Shown piece after piece: positions 1-7,877 of a stretch of DNA of 17,832 bases; positions within the stretch are counted from its first letter, which is position 1, and every line of letters starts with the position of its first letter. The stretch comes from a virus (lineage: Duplodnaviria > Heunggongvirae > Uroviricota > Caudoviricetes), in IMG/VR virus record IMGVR_UViG_2537561685_000014, positions 1-17,832 of that record; one strand, written 5' to 3'. The translations under genes were made by a program, and so were the position numbers. The notes under the pieces are model-generated. The model made no database searches. It saw nothing but the letters and a program-made list of their open reading frames with translations, and was not told the DNA's origin.

Positions 1-91
1 ACAGCTTACGAACCTGAGGAGTAAGAGACCAGGCGGGGGAGAATCCCTCGCCACCTCTGATGTGTCAGGCATCCTCAACGCACCCGCACTT

Positions 92-118
92 AACCCGCTT
101 CGGCGGGTTTTGTTTTTT
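92..118 (+). terminator. Intrinsic terminator-like hairpin
   Basis: Stem CCCGC / GCGGG with loop TTCG, followed by TTTTGTTTTTT. It lies inside the 5' part of the 62..469 ORF, so it probably ends an upstream transcript. Confidence 0.5.
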
Positions 119-190
119 CCTAGCATTCTGGTTTACAATTCGCACGCCAGCCTGAACAACTGGCACCTGCTGCGCCAGCAGAGACAACCG

Positions 191-469
191 ATGGCGCACG
201 ATACCAAATTACACAATTCTGATGATTCTGCCGTCTTTGCCAGCAGGCACGGGCGGCGTTCCCGCACTTTCAAATCTGACTGGTTCCAGCATCCCCCATG
301 CACTGAAGAACAGGCCGAGTGGCTAATTCAGTGCTACCGCAGACACGGATACGAGATTAAGAAAGCCCTCAGCCTCGATTATCGTCACTGGATAATCTCC
401 GTCAGGCTTCCTTACTCCGAACGCCCACCGCGTCCGTCCCGCACATTCCAGCAACGCATCTGGAGGTAA
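191..469 (+). CDS. Hypothetical nin-region protein (92 aa)
   Basis: First ATG after the terminator hairpin, in the frame that stays open back to the window edge; stop 2 nt before the next gene. No family recognised. The start could instead be GTG 62 or lie upstream of the window. Confidence 0.4.
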   Translation: MAHDTKLHNSDDSAVFASRHGRRSRTFKSDWFQHPPCTEEQAEWLIQCYRRHGYEIKKALSLDYRHWIISVRLPYSERPPRPSRTFQQRIWR

Positions 470-470
470 C

Positions 471-1517
471 GTGCGGGTATTACTTCGACCTGTTCTGGTA
501 CCGGAACTCGGGCTGGTGATCGTTAAGCCGGGCCGGGAATCCATGCCGGTATTCCACAATACCCGGGTACTGGTGGAGCCGGAACCGAAAAGCATGCGTA
601 ATCTGCCGTCCGGGGTCGTTCCTGCCGTTCGCCAGCCGCTAGTGGAAGACAAAACATTGCTGCCGTTTTTCAGTAACGCACGGGTGATTCGTGCTGCTGG
701 TGGTGCTGGTGCATTGTCTGACTGGCTGTTGCGCCATATTAAATCCTGCCAGTGGCCTCATGGTGATTACCATCACAGCGAAACCGTCATACATCGTTAC
801 GGTGCTGGCGCGATGGTGTTGTGCTGGCACTGTGACAACCAGTTGCGTGACCAGTCCTCCGAATCACTTGAGCAACTTGCTCACCAAAACCTGTCAGCAT
901 GGATGATTGATGTCATGCGCCATGCAATGAATGGCACACAGGAGCGGGAATTATCGCTGGCTGAATTATCCTGGTGGGCTGTCTGCAATCAGGTGGCGGA
1001 CGCACTACCGGAGGTAGTATTACGTCGTTCTCTGGGGTTACGTGCGGAAAAAATTCGCTCGGTGTACCGCGAAAGCGACATCGTACCGGGAGAGCAGACC
1101 GCCACCAGCATACTGAAGCAGCGCACAAAAAATCTTGCGCCGCTGCCTCACGCCCACCAGCAAAATCCACCACAGGAAAAGACGGTGGTCAGCATTGCTG
1201 TTGATCCGGAGTCTCCGGAATCTTTCATGAAGCGACCTAAACGTCGCCGTTGGGTAAATGAGAAATATACGCGCTGGGTAAAGACACAGCCGTGTGCGTG
1301 TTGTGATAAGCCAGCCGACGATCCCCATCACCTGATTGGTCATGGTCAGGGCGGAATAGGGACAAAATCCCACGATATTTTCACGCTACCGCTGTGTCGG
1401 GAGCATCACAACGAGCTTCATGCGGATCCGCTGGCGTTCGAAGAAAAGCATGGTTCCCAGATTGATTTAATTTTTCGTTTTCTTGATCGCGCCTTTGCAA
1501 CCGGCGTGCTCGGGTAA
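471..1517 (+). CDS. DUF968/YdfU-like nin-region protein with C-terminal HNH-like Cys/His motif
   Basis: 348-aa ORF with GTG start 4 nt after GGAGG. C-terminus has PCACCDKP...DPHHLIGHGQGG...LPLCREHHNELH, an HNH/zinc-finger-like pattern that I recall from YdfU-type prophage proteins. Confidence 0.55.
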   Translation: MRVLLRPVLVPELGLVIVKPGRESMPVFHNTRVLVEPEPKSMRNLPSGVVPAVRQPLVEDKTLLPFFSNARVIRAAGGAGALSDWLLRHIKSCQWPHGDYHHSETVIHRYGAGAMVLCWHCDNQLRDQSSESLEQLAHQNLSAWMIDVMRHAMNGTQERELSLAELSWWAVCNQVADALPEVVLRRSLGLRAEKIRSVYRESDIVPGEQTATSILKQRTKNLAPLPHAHQQNPPQEKTVVSIAVDPESPESFMKRPKRRRWVNEKYTRWVKTQPCACCDKPADDPHHLIGHGQGGIGTKSHDIFTLPLCREHHNELHADPLAFEEKHGSQIDLIFRFLDRAFATGVLG

Positions 1518-1529
1518 AAGAGGTTACTG

Positions 1530-1901
1530 ATGCGTATAGAGTTTGTTTTGCCTTACCCGCCGACGGTGAACACCTACTGGCGTCGTCGTGGCAGCACATA
1601 TTTTGTATCAAAAGCCGGTGAGCGTTATCGCCGGGATGTGGCACTTATTGTCCGCCAGCAGCGGCTGAAATTAAACCTGTCCGGAAGGCTGGCAATAAAA
1701 ATTACTGCAGAGCCGCCGGATAAGCGCCGTCGGGACCTGGACAATATCCTGAAAGCACCGCTGGATGCACTGACGCATGCGGGGCTTCTCATAGACGACG
1801 AGCAGTTTGATGAAATCAATATTGTGCGCGGTAAGCTCGTTCCTGGTGGTCGGCTGGGCGTGAAGATTTGCGAAATTAGAGGTGATAGTAATGGGGCGTG
1901 A
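1530..1901 (+). CDS. rusA: Holliday-junction resolvase RusA
   Basis: 123 aa; ATG preceded by AGAGG. Motifs LPYPPTVNTYWRR, PDKRRRDLDNILKAPLDALTHAGLLIDDEQ and GGRL match the RusA pattern. Typical position just upstream of Q. Confidence 0.85.
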   Translation: MRIEFVLPYPPTVNTYWRRRGSTYFVSKAGERYRRDVALIVRQQRLKLNLSGRLAIKITAEPPDKRRRDLDNILKAPLDALTHAGLLIDDEQFDEINIVRGKLVPGGRLGVKICEIRGDSNGA

Positions 1902-2244
1902 TATGTATGAGGTTTTAGACCGCTGGGGGGCATGGGCTGCAGCAGAAAATAGTGGTGTCGATTGGCAACCGATAGCAGCGGGCTTCAAGGGGCTTTTACC
2001 TCATGGTAAAAAGTCACGGATTCAGTGTGATGATGACGAAGGCATTATGATAGACAGTTGTGTGGCTCGGTTGAGAAGGTATAAACCAGAGGAATATGAG
2101 CTCATCATAGCCCACTTTGTTATTGGTATCTCATTACGCACTATTGCCAAAAAGAGAAGGTGTTCAGATGGCACGATTAGAAAGGAATTACAAACTGCAA
2201 TTGGTTTTGTAGAGGGTATTACGAGCGTTATTGCATGTAAATAA
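1891..2244 (+). CDS. Late-gene antiterminator Q, small QuuD/phage-82-like type
   Basis: ATG 1891 preceded by AGAGGTGA and overlapping the rusA stop (the ORF track starts at GTG 1882). Motifs LDRWGAWAA and IAAGFKGL plus Cys-rich centre are typical of small Q antiterminators of defective lambdoid prophages. Confidence 0.75.
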   Translation: MGRDMYEVLDRWGAWAAAENSGVDWQPIAAGFKGLLPHGKKSRIQCDDDEGIMIDSCVARLRRYKPEEYELIIAHFVIGISLRTIAKKRRCSDGTIRKELQTAIGFVEGITSVIACK

Positions 2245-2247
2245 AAG

Positions 2248-2273
2248 CTAAAAGCCACCGTAGTGGCTTTTAG
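2248..2273. terminator. Bidirectional terminator-like hairpin between convergent genes
   Basis: Perfect 11-bp inverted repeat CTAAAAGCCAC / GTGGCTTTTAG with CGTA loop, T-rich on both strands; sits 4 nt after the Q stop. Confidence 0.6.
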
Positions 2274-2450
2274 CATTTTAGGATTGTGCAGGTAATGTTT
2301 TGTTCAATTTAGTAAAGAAGTTAGATTGGCTTGTTACAGTACGTCGACTCTTTCCAGAAGTACTCAACTGAAAGAAATCATTGATGCTTTTGGGTTGAGT
2401 TCTTTCATAGGCTTGCTTAAGTGACATGTGTTCCCCTTGTCTATTTGTTG

Positions 2451-3734
2451 CTATGACCGTGAAAAGTAGTGATGGTTCAGTTCTTTTGCAAAATAGTGCT
2501 TACGTTTAACCCAGATAAAACCATCAGCTTTAGAAATGATTGCAACATCTATGGGGCCTCCCACTGTTTCAGTATCATCGGAGACCTTGCGCTTGAAAGC
2601 GGTTAAATTTACTAATGATTCAGCCATATAAGCTAAATCTTGCTTGGGTAAAAACTCGATCATATTTACGACTTTGTCAACATAGTTTTCTCGGACAAAG
2701 CTATCAATACGCCCCTTGCAATCGGAAACAGTTCTGCGCACTACATCAACTATAGCATCCTTGGCTCCTTCGATATCTGAAGTGGGCACCAAATCTGTGA
2801 TTACTGAATCAATACCATCAAGTAAATCGCCGATAGAACGTTGATACTCAGCATGAAGATTTTGGATAAGATGTGAACTAGCTCCTTGCATGAAAGCAGA
2901 AACTTCATCCTCTTGCGCAAAGGGAGTCACGCCGCAATTAGGAGTGATGCAGCACTTGTCAGCATCTGTGGTTTTCCTTATTTTATCATTAAAGAAGCCA
3001 CAAACTTCATATGATAATACTTTAGGGTAATAGTCTTTATCGCCATAACCTGCAATCACAATCCCAGAGACGGAACCAATATCACTTTGCTTGCATATCA
3101 TAGCTGCCAATACATCACTAACTGCTTTTGTCAACTGTGGAGTTATGGATATTGAATCAAAGTCACTAAACTTTTGAGCAATGATGCGTTGGGTAATTGA
3201 TGAAGCATAGGTTTGGGCTGCTTGTTCATCATCCGGAGTAAAACCATCAAAGTAATTAATATCAGATAATTTTGTAAGGAGATCGTTGCAATAATTCGTG
3301 AGGTCTGTAACAAATTGATTCTTATCGAAGTTAACGAGATATGTTGGTTCGAGACCTTCAGAAAAAGCATCAACAAGCATGCTGAATACAATCTCGCTCA
3401 GGAAGTGATAAAGATGAGCCTCACGCATACCTGGTGTGATGATTGATTTAGCTGACTGTAGATAATTGAAGAAATCCTCAGCATATTCCTCCAAAGAGTC
3501 AAAACATTTAGAGCCTAAATCCTTTCTATAAGCCTTAATGATAAGCTCCCATGGAGCTGTGCAGAGATCACCAGTTCCATATACCATCAAACCTACAGGA
3601 TGATGTTTAGTGAGAGCGAAAAGCTTTTCAGCGCCATTATAGATTTTATGTTTGCCGCCTCCAGAAATCGTTACAGCTGAATCTGCGGCTAAAGCTACTG
3701 CGGTCTTGTTAAATACGGCTATTTCTGCTGTCAT
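2451..3734 (-). CDS. Proteasome-beta/HslV-like Ntn-hydrolase homolog with large extra regions (427 aa); function unknown
   Basis: Long minus-strand ORF, markedly AT-rich compared with its flanks. N-terminus MTAEIAVFNKTAVALAADSAVT fits the Thr1 ... Asp17 ... Lys33 layout of proteasome beta/HslV; VGLMVYGTGDL, IVIAGYGDKD and C-terminal TVGGPIDVAIISKADG resemble other conserved proteasome segments. Family assignment is by recalled motifs only. Confidence 0.6.
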   Translation of the reverse strand: MTAEIAVFNKTAVALAADSAVTISGGGKHKIYNGAEKLFALTKHHPVGLMVYGTGDLCTAPWELIIKAYRKDLGSKCFDSLEEYAEDFFNYLQSAKSIITPGMREAHLYHFLSEIVFSMLVDAFSEGLEPTYLVNFDKNQFVTDLTNYCNDLLTKLSDINYFDGFTPDDEQAAQTYASSITQRIIAQKFSDFDSISITPQLTKAVSDVLAAMICKQSDIGSVSGIVIAGYGDKDYYPKVLSYEVCGFFNDKIRKTTDADKCCITPNCGVTPFAQEDEVSAFMQGASSHLIQNLHAEYQRSIGDLLDGIDSVITDLVPTSDIEGAKDAIVDVVRRTVSDCKGRIDSFVRENYVDKVVNMIEFLPKQDLAYMAESLVNLTAFKRKVSDDTETVGGPIDVAIISKADGFIWVKRKHYFAKELNHHYFSRS

Positions 3735-3768
3735 TTTTTACATAGGGTTTATATGTTGTGTAATGAGA

Positions 3769-3797
3769 AAAATACAAAAAAATTAACGCGTACGCAA
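3769..3797 (-). promoter_or_regulatory. Candidate sigma70 promoter for the minus-strand gene
   Basis: On the minus strand: TTGCGT (3797..3792), 17-nt spacer, TATTTT (3774..3769), about 35 nt upstream of the ATG at 3734. Weak Shine-Dalgarno. Confidence 0.3.
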
Positions 3798-3842
3798 AAA
3801 TTCTTGTAATCTGTTAAGAGTGGTTACTTCGCCACACAGCTT

Positions 3843-3868
3843 AAACCCGCCGTCGAGCGGGTTTTTTT
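3843..3868 (+). terminator. Intrinsic terminator-like hairpin
   Basis: Stem AAACCCGC / GCGGGTTT with loop CGTCGA, then TTTTGT on the plus strand. No obvious plus-strand gene ends here; may insulate the island. Confidence 0.45.
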
Positions 3869-3990
3869 GTACCTGTAAACTTGGTGCAGTACGGTAAACA
3901 CGCTGGTGGTAGTGAATACTGACTTTTTATCTTGCTGGCTTTTTAGACAAGAGTTATTGGTATGTCATGTTAACCAGAAGGGAAAAAGAC

Positions 3991-4185
3991 ATGCTAAAAC
4001 AGCAAGATATGACAGAAACGGCGAAAGTTGTTTTTAATGAATTAAGCATCGAACCGGCAACAGTCGGGGAGATTGCACAAAACACATACCTTTCACGCGA
4101 ACGCTGTCAGTTAATACTGACCCAGTTGGTTATGGCGGGGCTGGCAGATTACCAGTTCGGCTGTTACAGACGTCTTCAGCAATGA
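3991..4185 (+). CDS. Small winged-helix/HTH DNA-binding protein (64 aa)
   Basis: ATG 3991 preceded by AAGGGA (the ORF track starts at an upstream ATG 3967). Segment ATVGEIAQNTYLSRERCQLILTQLVMAGL looks like a helix-turn-helix; overall layout resembles small FaeA/PapI-like regulators (tentative). Confidence 0.5.
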   Translation: MLKQQDMTETAKVVFNELSIEPATVGEIAQNTYLSRERCQLILTQLVMAGLADYQFGCYRRLQQ

Positions 4186-4334
4186 AGGGCTTTTAATTTG
4201 TGAAAATGGGCGGCTGGTGGGTGTTGGTAGCACCTGCCAGCCATTCGCTCATGCTTACTGGTCACAAGCGAACCACGGCCCACTGCTTTAGCGCAAAAGC
4301 AGAGTGAGCCTACCAGAGTTACGCTTACTGATCC

Positions 4335-5381
4335 ATGAAAAATACTGTAAAAATAAACAGTGTTGATTTAATCAACGCTGATTGCCTGCATTTTATTCAG
4401 TCCCTGCCTGATGATTCCATTGACCTGATTGTTACCGATCCGCCTTACTTCAAGGTGAAACCCAACGGTTGGGACAATCAGTGGAAAGGGGACGAAGATT
4501 ACCTTAAGTGGCTGGACCACTGTCTGGCCCAGTTCTGGCGGGTGTTGAAACCTGCCGGAAGCCTTTACCTGTTCTGTGGGCATCGCCTGGCATCTGATAT
4601 CGAAATCATGATGCGTGAACGCTTTAATGTGCTGAACCACATTATCTGGGCGAAGCCGTCCGGACGCTGGAACGGATGCAACAAGGAAAGCCTGCGGGCG
4701 TATTTCCCGGCAACAGAGCGCATTCTGTTTGCTGAACATTATCAGGGGCCATACCAGCCCAAAAATGACGGCTATGCGGCAAAGGGGCGCGAGCTTAAAC
4801 AGTGCGTCATGGCCCCGCTGATTTCTTACTTTCGTGATGCGCGAGAATCTCTGGGAATAACATCAAAACAGATAGCGGAAGCCACCGGAAAGAAAAACAT
4901 GGCGTCACACTGGTTTGGTGCCAGTCAGTGGCAGTTGCCGAACGAGGCTGATTACAAAAAACTTCAGGCGCTGTTCGCGCGTGTTGCAGCAGAAAAACAC
5001 CAGCGCGGGGAGCTGGAAAAGCCGCACCACCAGCTGGTCAGCACATACAGTGAACTGAACCGGCAATATGCCAGCCTGCAGGAGGAGTATAAATCCCTGC
5101 GGCGTTATTTTTCCGTATCAGCTGCTGTTCCGTATACGGATGTCTGGACGCACAAGCCTGTGCAGTATTATCCAGGCAAACATCCCTGTGAAAAACCGGC
5201 AGATATGTTGCGTCAGATAATTACTGCCAGCAGTCGCCCCGGTGATTTGGTCGCTGATTTTTTTATGGGGTCTGGCTCAACAATAAAAGCAGCACTTTCA
5301 CTGGGACGTCGCGCAATTGGCGTGGAACTGGAAGAAGAGAGATTTAATCAGACTGTAACTGAAATAAAAAATAATCGTTAA
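4335..5381 (+). CDS. DNA methyltransferase, beta-class (probably N6-adenine), orphan
   Basis: 348 aa. Catalytic motif IV LIVTDPPYF near the N-terminus and AdoMet motif I DFFMGSGST near the C-terminus; this IV-before-I order is typical of beta-class amino-methyltransferases. GC content is host-like, unlike the upstream AT-rich gene. Confidence 0.85.
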   Translation: MKNTVKINSVDLINADCLHFIQSLPDDSIDLIVTDPPYFKVKPNGWDNQWKGDEDYLKWLDHCLAQFWRVLKPAGSLYLFCGHRLASDIEIMMRERFNVLNHIIWAKPSGRWNGCNKESLRAYFPATERILFAEHYQGPYQPKNDGYAAKGRELKQCVMAPLISYFRDARESLGITSKQIAEATGKKNMASHWFGASQWQLPNEADYKKLQALFARVAAEKHQRGELEKPHHQLVSTYSELNRQYASLQEEYKSLRRYFSVSAAVPYTDVWTHKPVQYYPGKHPCEKPADMLRQIITASSRPGDLVADFFMGSGSTIKAALSLGRRAIGVELEEERFNQTVTEIKNNR

Positions 5382-5549
5382 ATATGCATTTAATAATTTC
5401 TTTATTTCATAAAAAATAAAAATATATACGTATATTTACAAATCTTGATATGATTTTCCATTGAAAAGAGAGCTGGCATTATTAATATCGGTACCCGGTT
5501 CCGAAGGGGATGTAAGCGCGGTCATTTTTATTTCTCTTGAGGAACCTGT

Positions 5550-5625
<76 letters not shown>

Positions 5626-5628
5626 TAT

Positions 5629-5703
<75 letters not shown>

Positions 5704-6061
5704 GAGAAACAAGCCTTATTGTATCGTTGCACTGGCGTATTTTTTATTGCGTGGGAGCAGGTTGTTTTTAAAAGGCATTCTGTTTTCTGGCTGTGATTTG
5801 AGGTCGGTTATAGCCACAGTGCTGTTTTTTACACCACTGGAATGGTGCATTATCGGTGGAAATTGAGCATTTCCTGACAGGGGCCGATGATGCACTATCC
5901 CGGTGTTGTAAATAACACTACAGAGGTGTTCCTCAGTGCGAGGGTGGTTTATGTAACTGTTTAGCGGGAAACCACAGTATTCATGGAGAGATGGATACTT
6001 CGGGGGGCACCCGACACCTCTGTTTTTCTACTACAAAAATGATTCATCTCTGGCATTTTTC

Positions 6062-6088
6062 AACCGCCGTTCCGGGCGGTTTTTTTTA
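6062..6088 (+). terminator. Intrinsic terminator
   Basis: Stem AACCGCC / GGCGGTT with loop GTTCCG, followed by a run of 8 T. Confidence 0.7.
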
Positions 6089-6410
6089 TTCTGAACTCAG
6101 AAAAGAATACACGGGCATTGATATTACCCGTGTGGCAAGGCCATGAAAGCCAATAATGAACTGAGCGCAAAAAAAGCGCGGCTGTCGGATTAACGCCGCG
6201 GGACAAAGTCCGTGAAGAAGAATAAGCATCAGTCTCCTCCAGGAGACGATTTGATATTACTAAGCTTTAAAAATGGTTTAAACCCCCGGATTAACCTTAA
6301 TTTCAGATAAGCTTTATTTCATTTTCTCCGAGCCACGTCAGGCGCATATCACATCAGATAACACCACATAAAAGGTATCTGCGGGTGCCTTTCACGGGGT
6401 GTTTTTTTAC

Positions 6411-6434
6411 GGGCCGCTGGTGGCCCTTTTTTAT
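6411..6434 (+). terminator. Intrinsic terminator, tR'-like, just upstream of the lysis genes
   Basis: Stem GGGCC / GGCCC with loop GCTGGT, then TTTTTTATTT; 17 nt before the first lysis-gene start codon. Position is analogous to lambda tR' ahead of S. Confidence 0.7.
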
Positions 6435-6450
6435 TTACAGGAGAAAAAGT

Positions 6451-6843
6451 ATGTCTGAACCCTTATCCGGTTCCGGCACGGCTGCAGCGCTCGGCGGGGC
6501 GACGGTGTACGGGCTGTTTACCGGAACGGATTTCGGGATTGTGTTTGGTGCCTTTGCCGGGGCGTTATTTGTGGCAACGATGCCGCAGGCGCTTTCAGCC
6601 TGGCGTGTGGCGGCACATTTTCTGGTGTCGTTCATTGTTGGTGTGCTGGGGGCAGAAGTTCTGGCATCCTGGCTGGTAAAGCATACAGAGTTTGACGGTG
6701 CACCTGTCGACGCATTGTGTGCAGTACTGGTGTCAGTGGTGTCGGTGAAGATTCTCTCGTTCATCCACCAGCAGGATATTGCATCACTGGTGTCCGGTCT
6801 GTTCTCCCGTCTGCGGGGCGGAGGAGGCGGCAATGTTAAGTAA
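6451..6843 (+). CDS. Lysis-cassette membrane protein, putative holin (130 aa)
   Basis: ATG 6451 preceded by AGGAG (the ORF track starts at GTG 6385, which would run through the terminator). Three to four hydrophobic helices, Gly-rich charged C-terminus; first gene of the lysis cassette. Confidence 0.5.
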   Translation: MSEPLSGSGTAAALGGATVYGLFTGTDFGIVFGAFAGALFVATMPQALSAWRVAAHFLVSFIVGVLGAEVLASWLVKHTEFDGAPVDALCAVLVSVVSVKILSFIHQQDIASLVSGLFSRLRGGGGGNVK

Positions 6844-7111
6844 CCTTCCCGGATTGCTGAATGTGGCGTTATGCACGGTTATCGTGCTGACGCTCTTTTT
6901 TTATCGTCGTCGTGATTCCAGACATAAACCGTTGATGTCATGGCTGGCCTGGCTGCTGATGCTGCTTTATGCCTTTGCACCACTCAGTTATCTGTGCGGT
7001 CGCCCGTTAGCGGCGAACTGGCTGGCGGTGGGGCTTAATCTGCTGTTCTGCGTGTTGGTTATTCGCGCACGCGGGAACGTTTCAAAAATCTTTGTATTAC
7101 GAAGACGCTGA
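6833..7111 (+). CDS. Lysis-cassette membrane protein, putative second holin/antiholin (92 aa)
   Basis: ATG 6833 preceded by GGAGGAGG, overlapping the end of the previous gene (the ORF track starts at an upstream ATG 6779); three predicted transmembrane segments; stop immediately before the endolysin ATG. Confidence 0.45.
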   Translation: MLSNLPGLLNVALCTVIVLTLFFYRRRDSRHKPLMSWLAWLLMLLYAFAPLSYLCGRPLAANWLAVGLNLLFCVLVIRARGNVSKIFVLRRR

Positions 7112-7112
7112 T

Positions 7113-7658
7113 ATGAAGTCGAAAGATGAAATTTTTGACGAAGTTCTGGGAAAAGAGGGCGGTTACGTCAATCACCCGGATGATAAAGGCGGACCGACAA
7201 AATGGGGTATTACGGAAAAAGTCGCCCGCGCTCACGGATATCAGGGCGATATGCGTGACCTGACACGCGAACAGGCACTGGAAATCCTTGAGGCGGATTA
7301 CTGGTTCGGACCACGCTTTGATCAGGTGGCCGCATTATCCTCTGATATTGCTGCAGAGTTGTGTGATACCGGTGTGAATATGGGGCCGTCCGTAGCATCG
7401 AAAATGCTCCAACGCTGGCTGAACGTTTTCAACCTGCAAGGCAAATTGTTCCCGGATATGGACGCAGACGGGCGTATCGGCCCCCGCACGATTAATGCAC
7501 TACGGACTTATCTGCAAAAACGCGGCAAAGACGGCGAACTGGTGATGCTGAAGGCGCTGAATTGCACGCAGGGCGACCGCTATCTGGAGCTGGCAGAAAA
7601 ACGCGAGGCCAACGAGTCGTTTGTCTACGGCTGGATGAAAGAGCGCGTAGCAGTTTAA
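7113..7658 (+). CDS. Endolysin, GH108-type lysozyme with peptidoglycan-binding domain
   Basis: Motif EGGYVNHPDDKGGPTKWGIT is the glycoside-hydrolase-108 N-terminal signature; C-terminal half resembles a PG_binding_3 domain. ATG 7113 directly follows the upstream stop (the ORF track starts at TTG 7092). No signal-anchor sequence. Confidence 0.8.
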   Translation: MKSKDEIFDEVLGKEGGYVNHPDDKGGPTKWGITEKVARAHGYQGDMRDLTREQALEILEADYWFGPRFDQVAALSSDIAAELCDTGVNMGPSVASKMLQRWLNVFNLQGKLFPDMDADGRIGPRTINALRTYLQKRGKDGELVMLKALNCTQGDRYLELAEKREANESFVYGWMKERVAV

Positions 7659-7752
7659 AAACTGACGCTGAAGTGCTGAACACCCTCAACTCACGCAGGC
7701 TCTTTTCTGGGGTTACGATGAGCGAAAGTAAGGGGTACCGCATCAGATAGCA

Positions 7753-7786
7753 AAAACCCCGGCTGCTGGAACAGTCCGGGGTTTTT
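7753..7786 (+). terminator. Terminator-like hairpin after the endolysin
   Basis: 10-bp stem AAAACCCCGG / CCGGGGTTTT with 13-nt loop, followed by TAGTTTT. Confidence 0.55.
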
Positions 7787-7877
7787 AGTTTTCACGTCAA
7801 AGAGGAAATTGTGAGTAGTGAGTACGGAGAAAATCCTCGTGGGAAAGTATAAAAGATTCTTTTTGAGGTTGTCCATT

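Follow-up and report, generated by a model that had tools for sequence, protein, structure and literature searches.

What does a DNA methyltransferase without an apparent restriction partner do in a phage genome, and what keeps it in check? The question arises from a stretch of 17,832 nucleotides (nt) of Caudoviricetes DNA (IMG/VR record IMGVR_UViG_2537561685_000014, positions 1 to 17,832), hereafter the window, in which a gene for a 348-amino-acid (aa) methyltransferase follows a small gene for a 64-aa protein. The original prediction had described the larger protein as an orphan beta-class enzyme and the smaller one as a helix-turn-helix (HTH) protein that could control it, and both open reading frames (ORFs) were found where it had placed them (Table 1). 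The reading that we prefer, with a probability of about 70%, is that the enzyme belongs to the M.EcoGII family, would be expressed late in a Q-dependent manner and would protect phage DNA against restriction, with its synthesis gated by the leader and the winged-helix protein serving as an accessory.

We first consider the class and family of the methyltransferase. The protein matched the Pfam family N6_N4_Mtase (PF01555) over profile positions 1-219 of 221 (E=5e-45; 154.5 bits for a cut-off of 26.7). Closer inspection found the conserved motifs intact, with DPPY at residues 35-38 (nt 4437-4448) and FMGSG at residues 310-314 (nt 5262-5276). Since DPPY precedes FxGxG, with the target-recognition region between them, the beta-class assignment holds, and the best solved relatives (RsrI, MboIIA, CcrM, and DpnA) are all beta-class enzymes; both halves of the protein align to RsrI, MboIIA, and CcrM. 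The family had been missed. Sequence comparison places the methyltransferase, which is thereby no unknown orphan, in the characterized M.EcoGII family: its identity to M.EcoGII is 83% over the full length (347 aa, 57 substitutions), the central four-helix recognition region included. The M.EcoGII sequence was taken from Supplementary Table S1 of the SUPREM paper, in which a few optical character recognition errors account for two alignment gaps. The protein also shares 84% identity with the enzyme of phage 1720a-02, cited as a very similar M.EcoGII homologue (Murray et al., 2018, PMC5778455), 89% with the reconstructed ancestor Anc291 and 73% with SUPREM, and it matched the PADLOC model MTase_II (PDLC03265) with E=2.5e-151.

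Both DNA and RNA are substrates of M.EcoGII, which methylates adenine at N6 whatever the surrounding sequence (PMC5778455). Anc291 and SUPREM were assayed as active on both DNA and RNA, and SUPREM and the tested variants were reported to be largely non-sequence-specific on RNA (SUPREM paper). As the window protein lies inside the sequence space spanned by these three tested enzymes, it very likely carries out the same context-free N6-adenine methylation, and a search for its target motif is probably moot in such a close (83%) member of an any-context family. M.EcoGII and M.EcoGI, from prophages of Escherichia coli O104:H4 C227-11 (PMC5778455), resemble the window enzyme in the order of DPPY and FxGxG, the lack of extra domains, the prophage location and the orphan state. 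Furthermore, enzymes 95% identical to M.EcoGII occupy the same slot between Q and the lysis genes and are accompanied by the same small gene. M.EcoGII is not expressed in its lysogen, and its constitutive expression is deleterious (PMC5778455; PMC12707154).

The absence of a partner nuclease is a trait of the M.EcoGII family, whose genes are prophage-encoded, and it was observed here too: the gene lies in a lambdoid late region with no nuclease-like neighbour, confirming its orphan state. The sole candidate for the co-inherited endonuclease of a Type II restriction-modification system is the divergent gene for a 427-aa protein (2451-3734, minus strand). We give next to no probability to a restriction-modification pair made of these two genes, for which only adjacency and divergent orientation speak. 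The 427-aa gene accompanies the module in only two of 80 related viral loci, its product has no nuclease signature and no Pfam, NCBIfam or PADLOC match, and the gene has a G+C content (0.38-0.41) and a terminator of its own. Its family is very large, with more than 6,000 homologues retrieved, and consists of hypothetical proteins across Gammaproteobacteria. In relatives, the slot holds other cargo: at locus L050 (2590-3747), it is filled by an unrelated GmrSD_N (DUF262) gene in the same orientation, and L004-like loci have an insert of about 3 kb between Q and the late terminator. Because the reverse-oriented cargo differs among relatives, the slot between Q and the late terminator (2245-3767) looks like a hotspot for cargo (moron) genes. 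Hence, the 427-aa gene is unrelated cargo and not a partner of the methyltransferase; it may be an uncharacterized prophage cargo or defence gene. Its family shows invariant Thr2, Asp18, Lys37, and Gly48 and a C-terminal GGPIDVAIISK motif, which recall proteasome-beta/Ntn-hydrolase proteins. A proteasome-beta-like assignment stayed weak, with a PDB profile E-value of about 1.3 and an hhalign probability of 37% against a proteasome sequence.

When would the enzyme be made? The window corresponds to the right arm of a lambdoid prophage, and its positions 2300-5600 are identical to prophages in nine complete E. coli genomes, mostly from human isolates and including ETEC-2265 and TW10722. A DUF968/HNH gene, RusA, Q, a bidirectional terminator (2247-2274) and the 427-aa gene are followed by a second terminator, the small gene, a 149-nt spacer, the methyltransferase gene, two tRNA genes, holins, a GH108 lysin, iss, and the terminase and head genes (Table 1). 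The order Q, terminator, small gene, methyltransferase, (tRNAs, stx) and lysis genes is found in phages SfV, phiP27, and 1720a-02 and in many Shiga toxin 2 (Stx2) phages. The homology with 1720a-02 and with Stx2 phages starts at the last 9 nt of their Q genes and, in 1720a-02, continues through the terminator; in that phage and the window, the two Q proteins are 55% identical, and the Q gene of 1720a-02 lies directly upstream of the same module. The hairpin equivalent to 3843-3871 is annotated in the SfV record as a terminator after Q. A scan for sigma-70 consensus promoters scored none between this terminator and the methyltransferase gene, nor in 3768-3842. Since they lie behind the post-Q terminator, have no scored promoter and precede the tRNA and lysis genes, the small gene and the methyltransferase gene appear to be the first genes of a Q-dependent late transcript. 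The module is thus most likely, as far as gene order can tell, the first cargo of the Q-dependent late operon and silent in the lysogen, which fits the reported silence of M.EcoGII in lysogens. The lack of a Shine-Dalgarno sequence before the methyltransferase gene points the same way.

Table 1. Coordinates of the methyltransferase module and of the elements thought to govern it, with the basis of each assignment.
Feature	Position	Strand	Basis
Late antiterminator gene Q, putative trans-acting switch of the module	1882..2244	+	Pfam Phage_antitermQ, E=1e-43
Segment homologous to the DNA directly 3' of the Q stop in relatives; putative late-promoter (pR'-like) site	3768..3842	+	Homology with Stx2 phages and phage 1720a-02
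Strong intrinsic terminator, tR'-like; 8-bp G+C-rich stem followed by a T7 run	3843..3871	+	Terminator scan; aligns with the annotated post-Q terminator of phage SfV
Gene for 64-aa winged-helix protein, with a good Shine-Dalgarno sequence AGAAGGGA	3991..4185	+	RefSeq call, conservation, model
Conserved non-coding methyltransferase leader, structured RNA	4186..4334	+	Conservation, covariation, covariance model
Gene for M.EcoGII-family beta-class N6-adenine DNA methyltransferase, 348 aa, without a Shine-Dalgarno sequence	4335..5381	+	Profile and sequence comparison
tRNA-Thr(UGU) and tRNA-Gly(UCC), 5' of the holin and lysin genes; context for the late transcription unit	5550..5703	+	

Several smaller observations were made in this region. 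A TTAACG-16 nt-TGTAAT arrangement at 3783-3810 was seen by eye only and falls below the rules of the promoter scan. The bidirectional terminator, 3 nt after the Q stop, is a 12-bp hairpin with perfect pairing, bordered by runs of A and of T, and transcription both towards Q and from the cargo gene could end there; if the late promoter were upstream of this hairpin, late transcripts would have to traverse it. The 65 nt upstream of the small gene (3926-3990) are 83-87% conserved, above the preceding 50 nt, without a consensus promoter, and may be a second leader element. The two tRNA genes occupy the position held by ileZ-argN-argO upstream of stx in Stx phages. A serum-resistance lipoprotein gene of the iss/bor type (8347-8688, minus strand), annotated in the identical RefSeq locus, lies 3' of the lysis genes. 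A comparative study of the pR' and Q-stx region does not mention the module, and no published promoter or terminator mapping covering it was found, as the Sakai prophage Sp5 does not carry it.

In our preferred reading, the S-adenosylmethionine (SAM)-dependent beta-class enzyme would methylate adenines at N6 almost or wholly irrespective of sequence. Q would let RNA polymerase read through the terminator at 3843-3871 during lytic growth, the module would be transcribed only then, and the toxic methyltransferase would be kept off in the lysogen. Replicating phage DNA would be heavily methylated before packaging, and the methylated progeny DNA would be protected in the next host from restriction systems sensitive to adenine methylation. 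The folded 149-nt leader, with its last helix at the start codon, would limit or gate translation of the enzyme, and the winged-helix protein would be an accessory that may either regulate via the leader or the DNA or bind the enzyme and modulate it.

The leader had gone unnoticed in the original prediction, and it is a structured RNA and a more conserved companion of the methyltransferase than the small gene. The length of the spacer is nearly constant, and a 130-nt core is 72-88% identical where flanking synonymous sites differ by 63-82%. RNAalifold, applied to 21 sequences, predicted a long hairpin at 4206-4252 (helices 4206-4211/4247-4252 and 4212-4221/4233-4242), an inner helix (4276-4283/4304-4311) and a long-range helix (4260-4269/4323-4333) that ends 1 nt before the AUG. 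Taken singly, the window leader folds better than shuffled versions of the same sequence (z = -2.65). When the 21-sequence alignment was turned into a covariance model, matches lay immediately 5' of the methyltransferase start codon at about 50 of the 69 distant loci, some of which lack the small gene. In a 54-sequence alignment, 91.8% of cells were paired, as compared to 21-41% with slid partners, and 24 of 34 pairs had changed on both sides, the observed values being reached by none of 500 shuffles. An independent RNAalifold run on the 54-sequence set again gave the main hairpin, together with part of the long-range helix; compensation was seen in 16 of 22 pairs. Because of the many G-U pairs, only the sense strand can form the structure, which points to RNA and away from a DNA operator.

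The methyltransferase gene has no Shine-Dalgarno sequence, while the small gene has a good one. Given that the last helix ends at the AUG and that no Shine-Dalgarno sequence is present, we infer that the leader limits or gates translation; roles in processing or in the binding of a ligand or protein are also compatible with the structure. A Dam site (GATC) is located within the long-range helix at 4330-4333, 1 nt upstream of the AUG, and UGAUC is found in nearly all close relatives. Rfam 15 gave no match at gathering thresholds over the window, and at E<=1 over 3700-4400 (the spacer and the region upstream of the small gene) only a chance Trp_leader match on the terminator. A spacer ORF starting MGGWWVL (4207-4308) was rejected and the spacer taken as non-coding, as many relatives have stops and frame-shifting indels in it. 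Chi octamers (GCTGGTGG) are abundant in the first 7 kb of the window, with eight copies (696, 1102, 1154, 3902, 4213, 5027, 6416, and 6765) for 0.7 expected from shuffles; the leader hairpin has one copy as its 5' arm, and a second is located shortly before the small gene. Chi as the cause of the hairpin conservation was rejected because distant relatives lose Chi and keep the stem by compensatory changes.

The small upstream gene is real. The RefSeq call has exactly the limits given in Table 1, and the conserved methionine of the family is the one at 3991, an upstream extension from 3967 not being conserved. The gene is under purifying selection, with nonsynonymous differences of 0.08-0.17 for synonymous differences of 0.63-0.82; initial comparisons with L070, L074, and L085 were discarded, since a one-codon indel had put them out of register. 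An AlphaFold model from a 23-sequence alignment (pLDDT, a predicted local distance difference test score, averaging 88.7) showed the order H1-strand-H2-H3-beta-hairpin of a classic winged helix, in agreement with the HTH protein first proposed; it supersedes a poor single-sequence model (pLDDT 65). The best Foldseek matches of the model in the PDB were winged-helix domains of MarR/OhrR, IclR, and O-methyltransferase dimerization domains, with query-normalized TM-scores up to 0.82 (about 0.8 for OhrR, MarR, and SarZ) and weak E-values of about 2e-3. The protein belongs to PHROG 331 ("unknown function"), had no match in PADLOC or NCBIfam, and is best described as a generic winged helix without a named family, because its Pfam matches (DprA_WH, TrmB, and MarR_2) are all below gathering thresholds. 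Its predicted isoelectric point (pI) is 5.1 (family median of 5.5) and that of the methyltransferase is 8.8, and an acidic small protein next to a basic enzyme mildly favours a protein-protein role. Conserved basic residues (R36, R38, and R61) in the recognition helix and wing leave room for nucleic-acid binding as well.

In the original prediction, the small protein was put forward as a possible controller of methyltransferase transcription, acting either like the controller (C) proteins of restriction-modification systems or as a methylation-sensitive regulator of the PapI/FaeA type. The winged-helix fold with its basic residues, the tight linkage of the two genes and an inverted repeat at 4212-4242 that could in principle serve as an operator are in line with such a role, which we nevertheless consider distinctly unlikely. 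C proteins are also small proteins with a DNA-binding fold encoded beside a methyltransferase, but they have an Xre-type HTH and act at C-boxes to time a restriction gene, whereas no HTH_3/Xre match was found at E<=10 in any of the 23 family members and there is no restriction gene to control. PapI and FaeA are small (about 70 aa) winged-helix proteins too, but no FaeA match was found in the same 23 proteins at the same threshold, and the gene lies in a phage late region with neither a fimbrial operon nor the context of an Lrp/GATC switch. Neither form of the proposal is thus supported. One and the same terminator precedes both genes, so the lysogen, in which repression is needed, would contain no small protein. 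In addition, the inverted repeat varies via G-U intermediates, as expected of paired RNA but not of an operator in DNA, and is retained at loci without the small gene, and no sigma-70 promoter was scored in the spacer.

How tightly are the two genes linked? Of the 77 viral loci whose flanking DNA is long enough, 71 have a full methyltransferase gene 153-158 nt 3' of the small gene. Three have truncated copies and three have none, among them L050, where an AraC-family gene replaces the methyltransferase and a stub of the leader remains. The pair was also kept in 22 of 23 genome loci, from Escherichia to Plesiomonas. Among distant methyltransferases (52-73% identical), a recognizable homologue of the small gene was found upstream, at 150-320 nt, in 31 of 69 loci and was not detected in the other 38, six of which have too little upstream DNA. 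The small gene is clearly absent at L167, where the order is a Q-like gene, terminator, leader, and methyltransferase. This very tight linkage, seen in about 95 of 100 loci at a constant spacing of about 150 nt, makes a regulatory or partner role of the small protein plausible, and since the methyltransferase also occurs without the small gene, the protein is better seen as a frequent accessory than as an obligatory subunit. In a distant phage group (L115-L140), a promoter-like TTGGCA-17 nt-TATCGT and an intrinsic terminator are found between the small-gene homologue and the leader and methyltransferase (at 2273-2357 in L125), and the two genes may be separate transcription units there.

A true subunit would have different consequences: the winged-helix protein would redirect or restrict the enzyme, and the native holoenzyme would not be non-specific but might target particular DNA, RNA or rRNA. 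The precedent is M.EcoPA8orf6770P of the Stx phage phiPA8, which co-purifies 1:1 with the product of an upstream winged-HTH gene, PNB-2, which makes the enzyme favour 16S rRNA (Gong et al., 2024, PMC10810198). It is likewise a lambdoid-phage methyltransferase with a small winged-HTH gene upstream, co-transcribed in that phage. The constant spacing of the tightly linked genes in our loci, the opposite charges of the two proteins (pI of 5.1 and 8.8) and the methylation of RNA by M.EcoGII (PMC5778455) agree with a subunit. We judge it unlikely, because M.EcoGII needs no partner for full, non-specific activity either in vitro or in vivo (PMC5778455), relatives at 52-73% identity keep the leader without a detectable small gene (for example L167, L169, L113, and L157), and the distant group carries a promoter-like site and a terminator between the two genes. 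Moreover, the precedent differs in being an MT-A70 enzyme with a DPPW motif, encoded at the other end of the prophage, expressed in the lysogen and acting on rRNA, and its complex with PNB-2 was shown, whereas that of the window pair is hypothetical. For its different family and site, we rejected the rRNA methyltransferase of Gong et al. as the same module.

A parallel to the accessory role that we prefer may be the com-mom operon of phage Mu. According to the work of Hattman and Kahmann, mom reportedly encodes a toxic adenine-modifying enzyme that is made late, has relaxed specificity and is silent in lysogens; a small gene is said to lie immediately upstream, with mRNA structure at the translation start. 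Mom and M.EcoGII have been paired in a review as silent and toxic (PMC12707154). The parts are unrelated: com-mom has no homology to the window module, Mom does not belong to the SAM methyltransferases, and Com is a zinc-finger protein. The small protein of the window has instead a winged-helix fold and just two conserved cysteines (C39 and C58), and it lacks the zinc finger of a leader-binding translational activator such as Com. That the small protein might activate translation as Com does is a hypothesis by analogy.

The methyltransferase might also act chiefly on the phage or host programme, through epigenetic timing, packaging, or the control of induction or virulence, and not against restriction. 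Other phage orphan methyltransferases have such roles: P1 Dmt acts at pac sites (PMC12707154), and the phiPA8 enzyme modulates induction (PMC10810198). The module also lies directly upstream of stx in many Stx2 phages. Nevertheless, methylation of adenine regardless of context can encode little about position, lysogens are reported not to express the enzyme, and the module is dispensable cargo, given that many lambdoid phages, such as Sp5, lack it. We therefore find a programme role improbable as the main function. The original prediction was right to take an anti-restriction or phage-cycle function as the most plausible one.

Some points weigh against the reading that we prefer. Its non-specific activity is extrapolated from relatives at 73-89% identity, and the comparison with the M.EcoGII slot was made with phages carrying 95%-identical enzymes as stand-ins for the C227-11 locus. 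No consensus late promoter was scored, and Q dependence rests on positional homology, as the 1.5-kb divergent cargo gene and the bidirectional terminator separate Q from the module. The 54-sequence leader alignment was fitted to the covariance model, which biases it toward the structure, and the helix nearest the AUG is the least supported, with 85% pairing and no recovery by RNAalifold on that set. Finally, a pI of 5.1 is unusual for a regulator that binds nucleic acids.

What do these results mean for the family? With this enzyme, a family that is already known and in commercial use gains a further member, and in this respect the finding is real but largely already explained. What this analysis adds is two candidate controls of a toxic enzyme, the conserved leader and the winged-helix gene linked to it. 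We found no description of either in searchable papers, and a text search of the M.EcoGII paper found no mention of the upstream winged-helix gene or the structured leader (PMC5778455). A bolder possibility, which we put forward tentatively and hold to be doubtful, is that the leader represents an undescribed class of cis-regulatory RNA for M.EcoGII-type genes that would gate, with the winged-helix protein, the translation or activity of the toxic enzyme, as an analogue of Mu com-mom built from unrelated parts, or else that the winged-helix protein would be a specificity or inhibitory subunit. If the latter were true, a widely used "non-specific" enzyme would behave differently in its native setting. 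M.EcoGII is a common reagent for chromatin footprinting, MadID, and RNA tools, and a textbook case of the phage "methylate everything" counter-defence. A covarying leader on a start codon without a Shine-Dalgarno sequence and a nearly always linked winged-helix gene offer testable handles on how phages control so toxic an enzyme. For annotation, an "orphan methyltransferase of unknown motif" would become a prediction of dense, context-free N6-methyladenine that appears only upon prophage induction.

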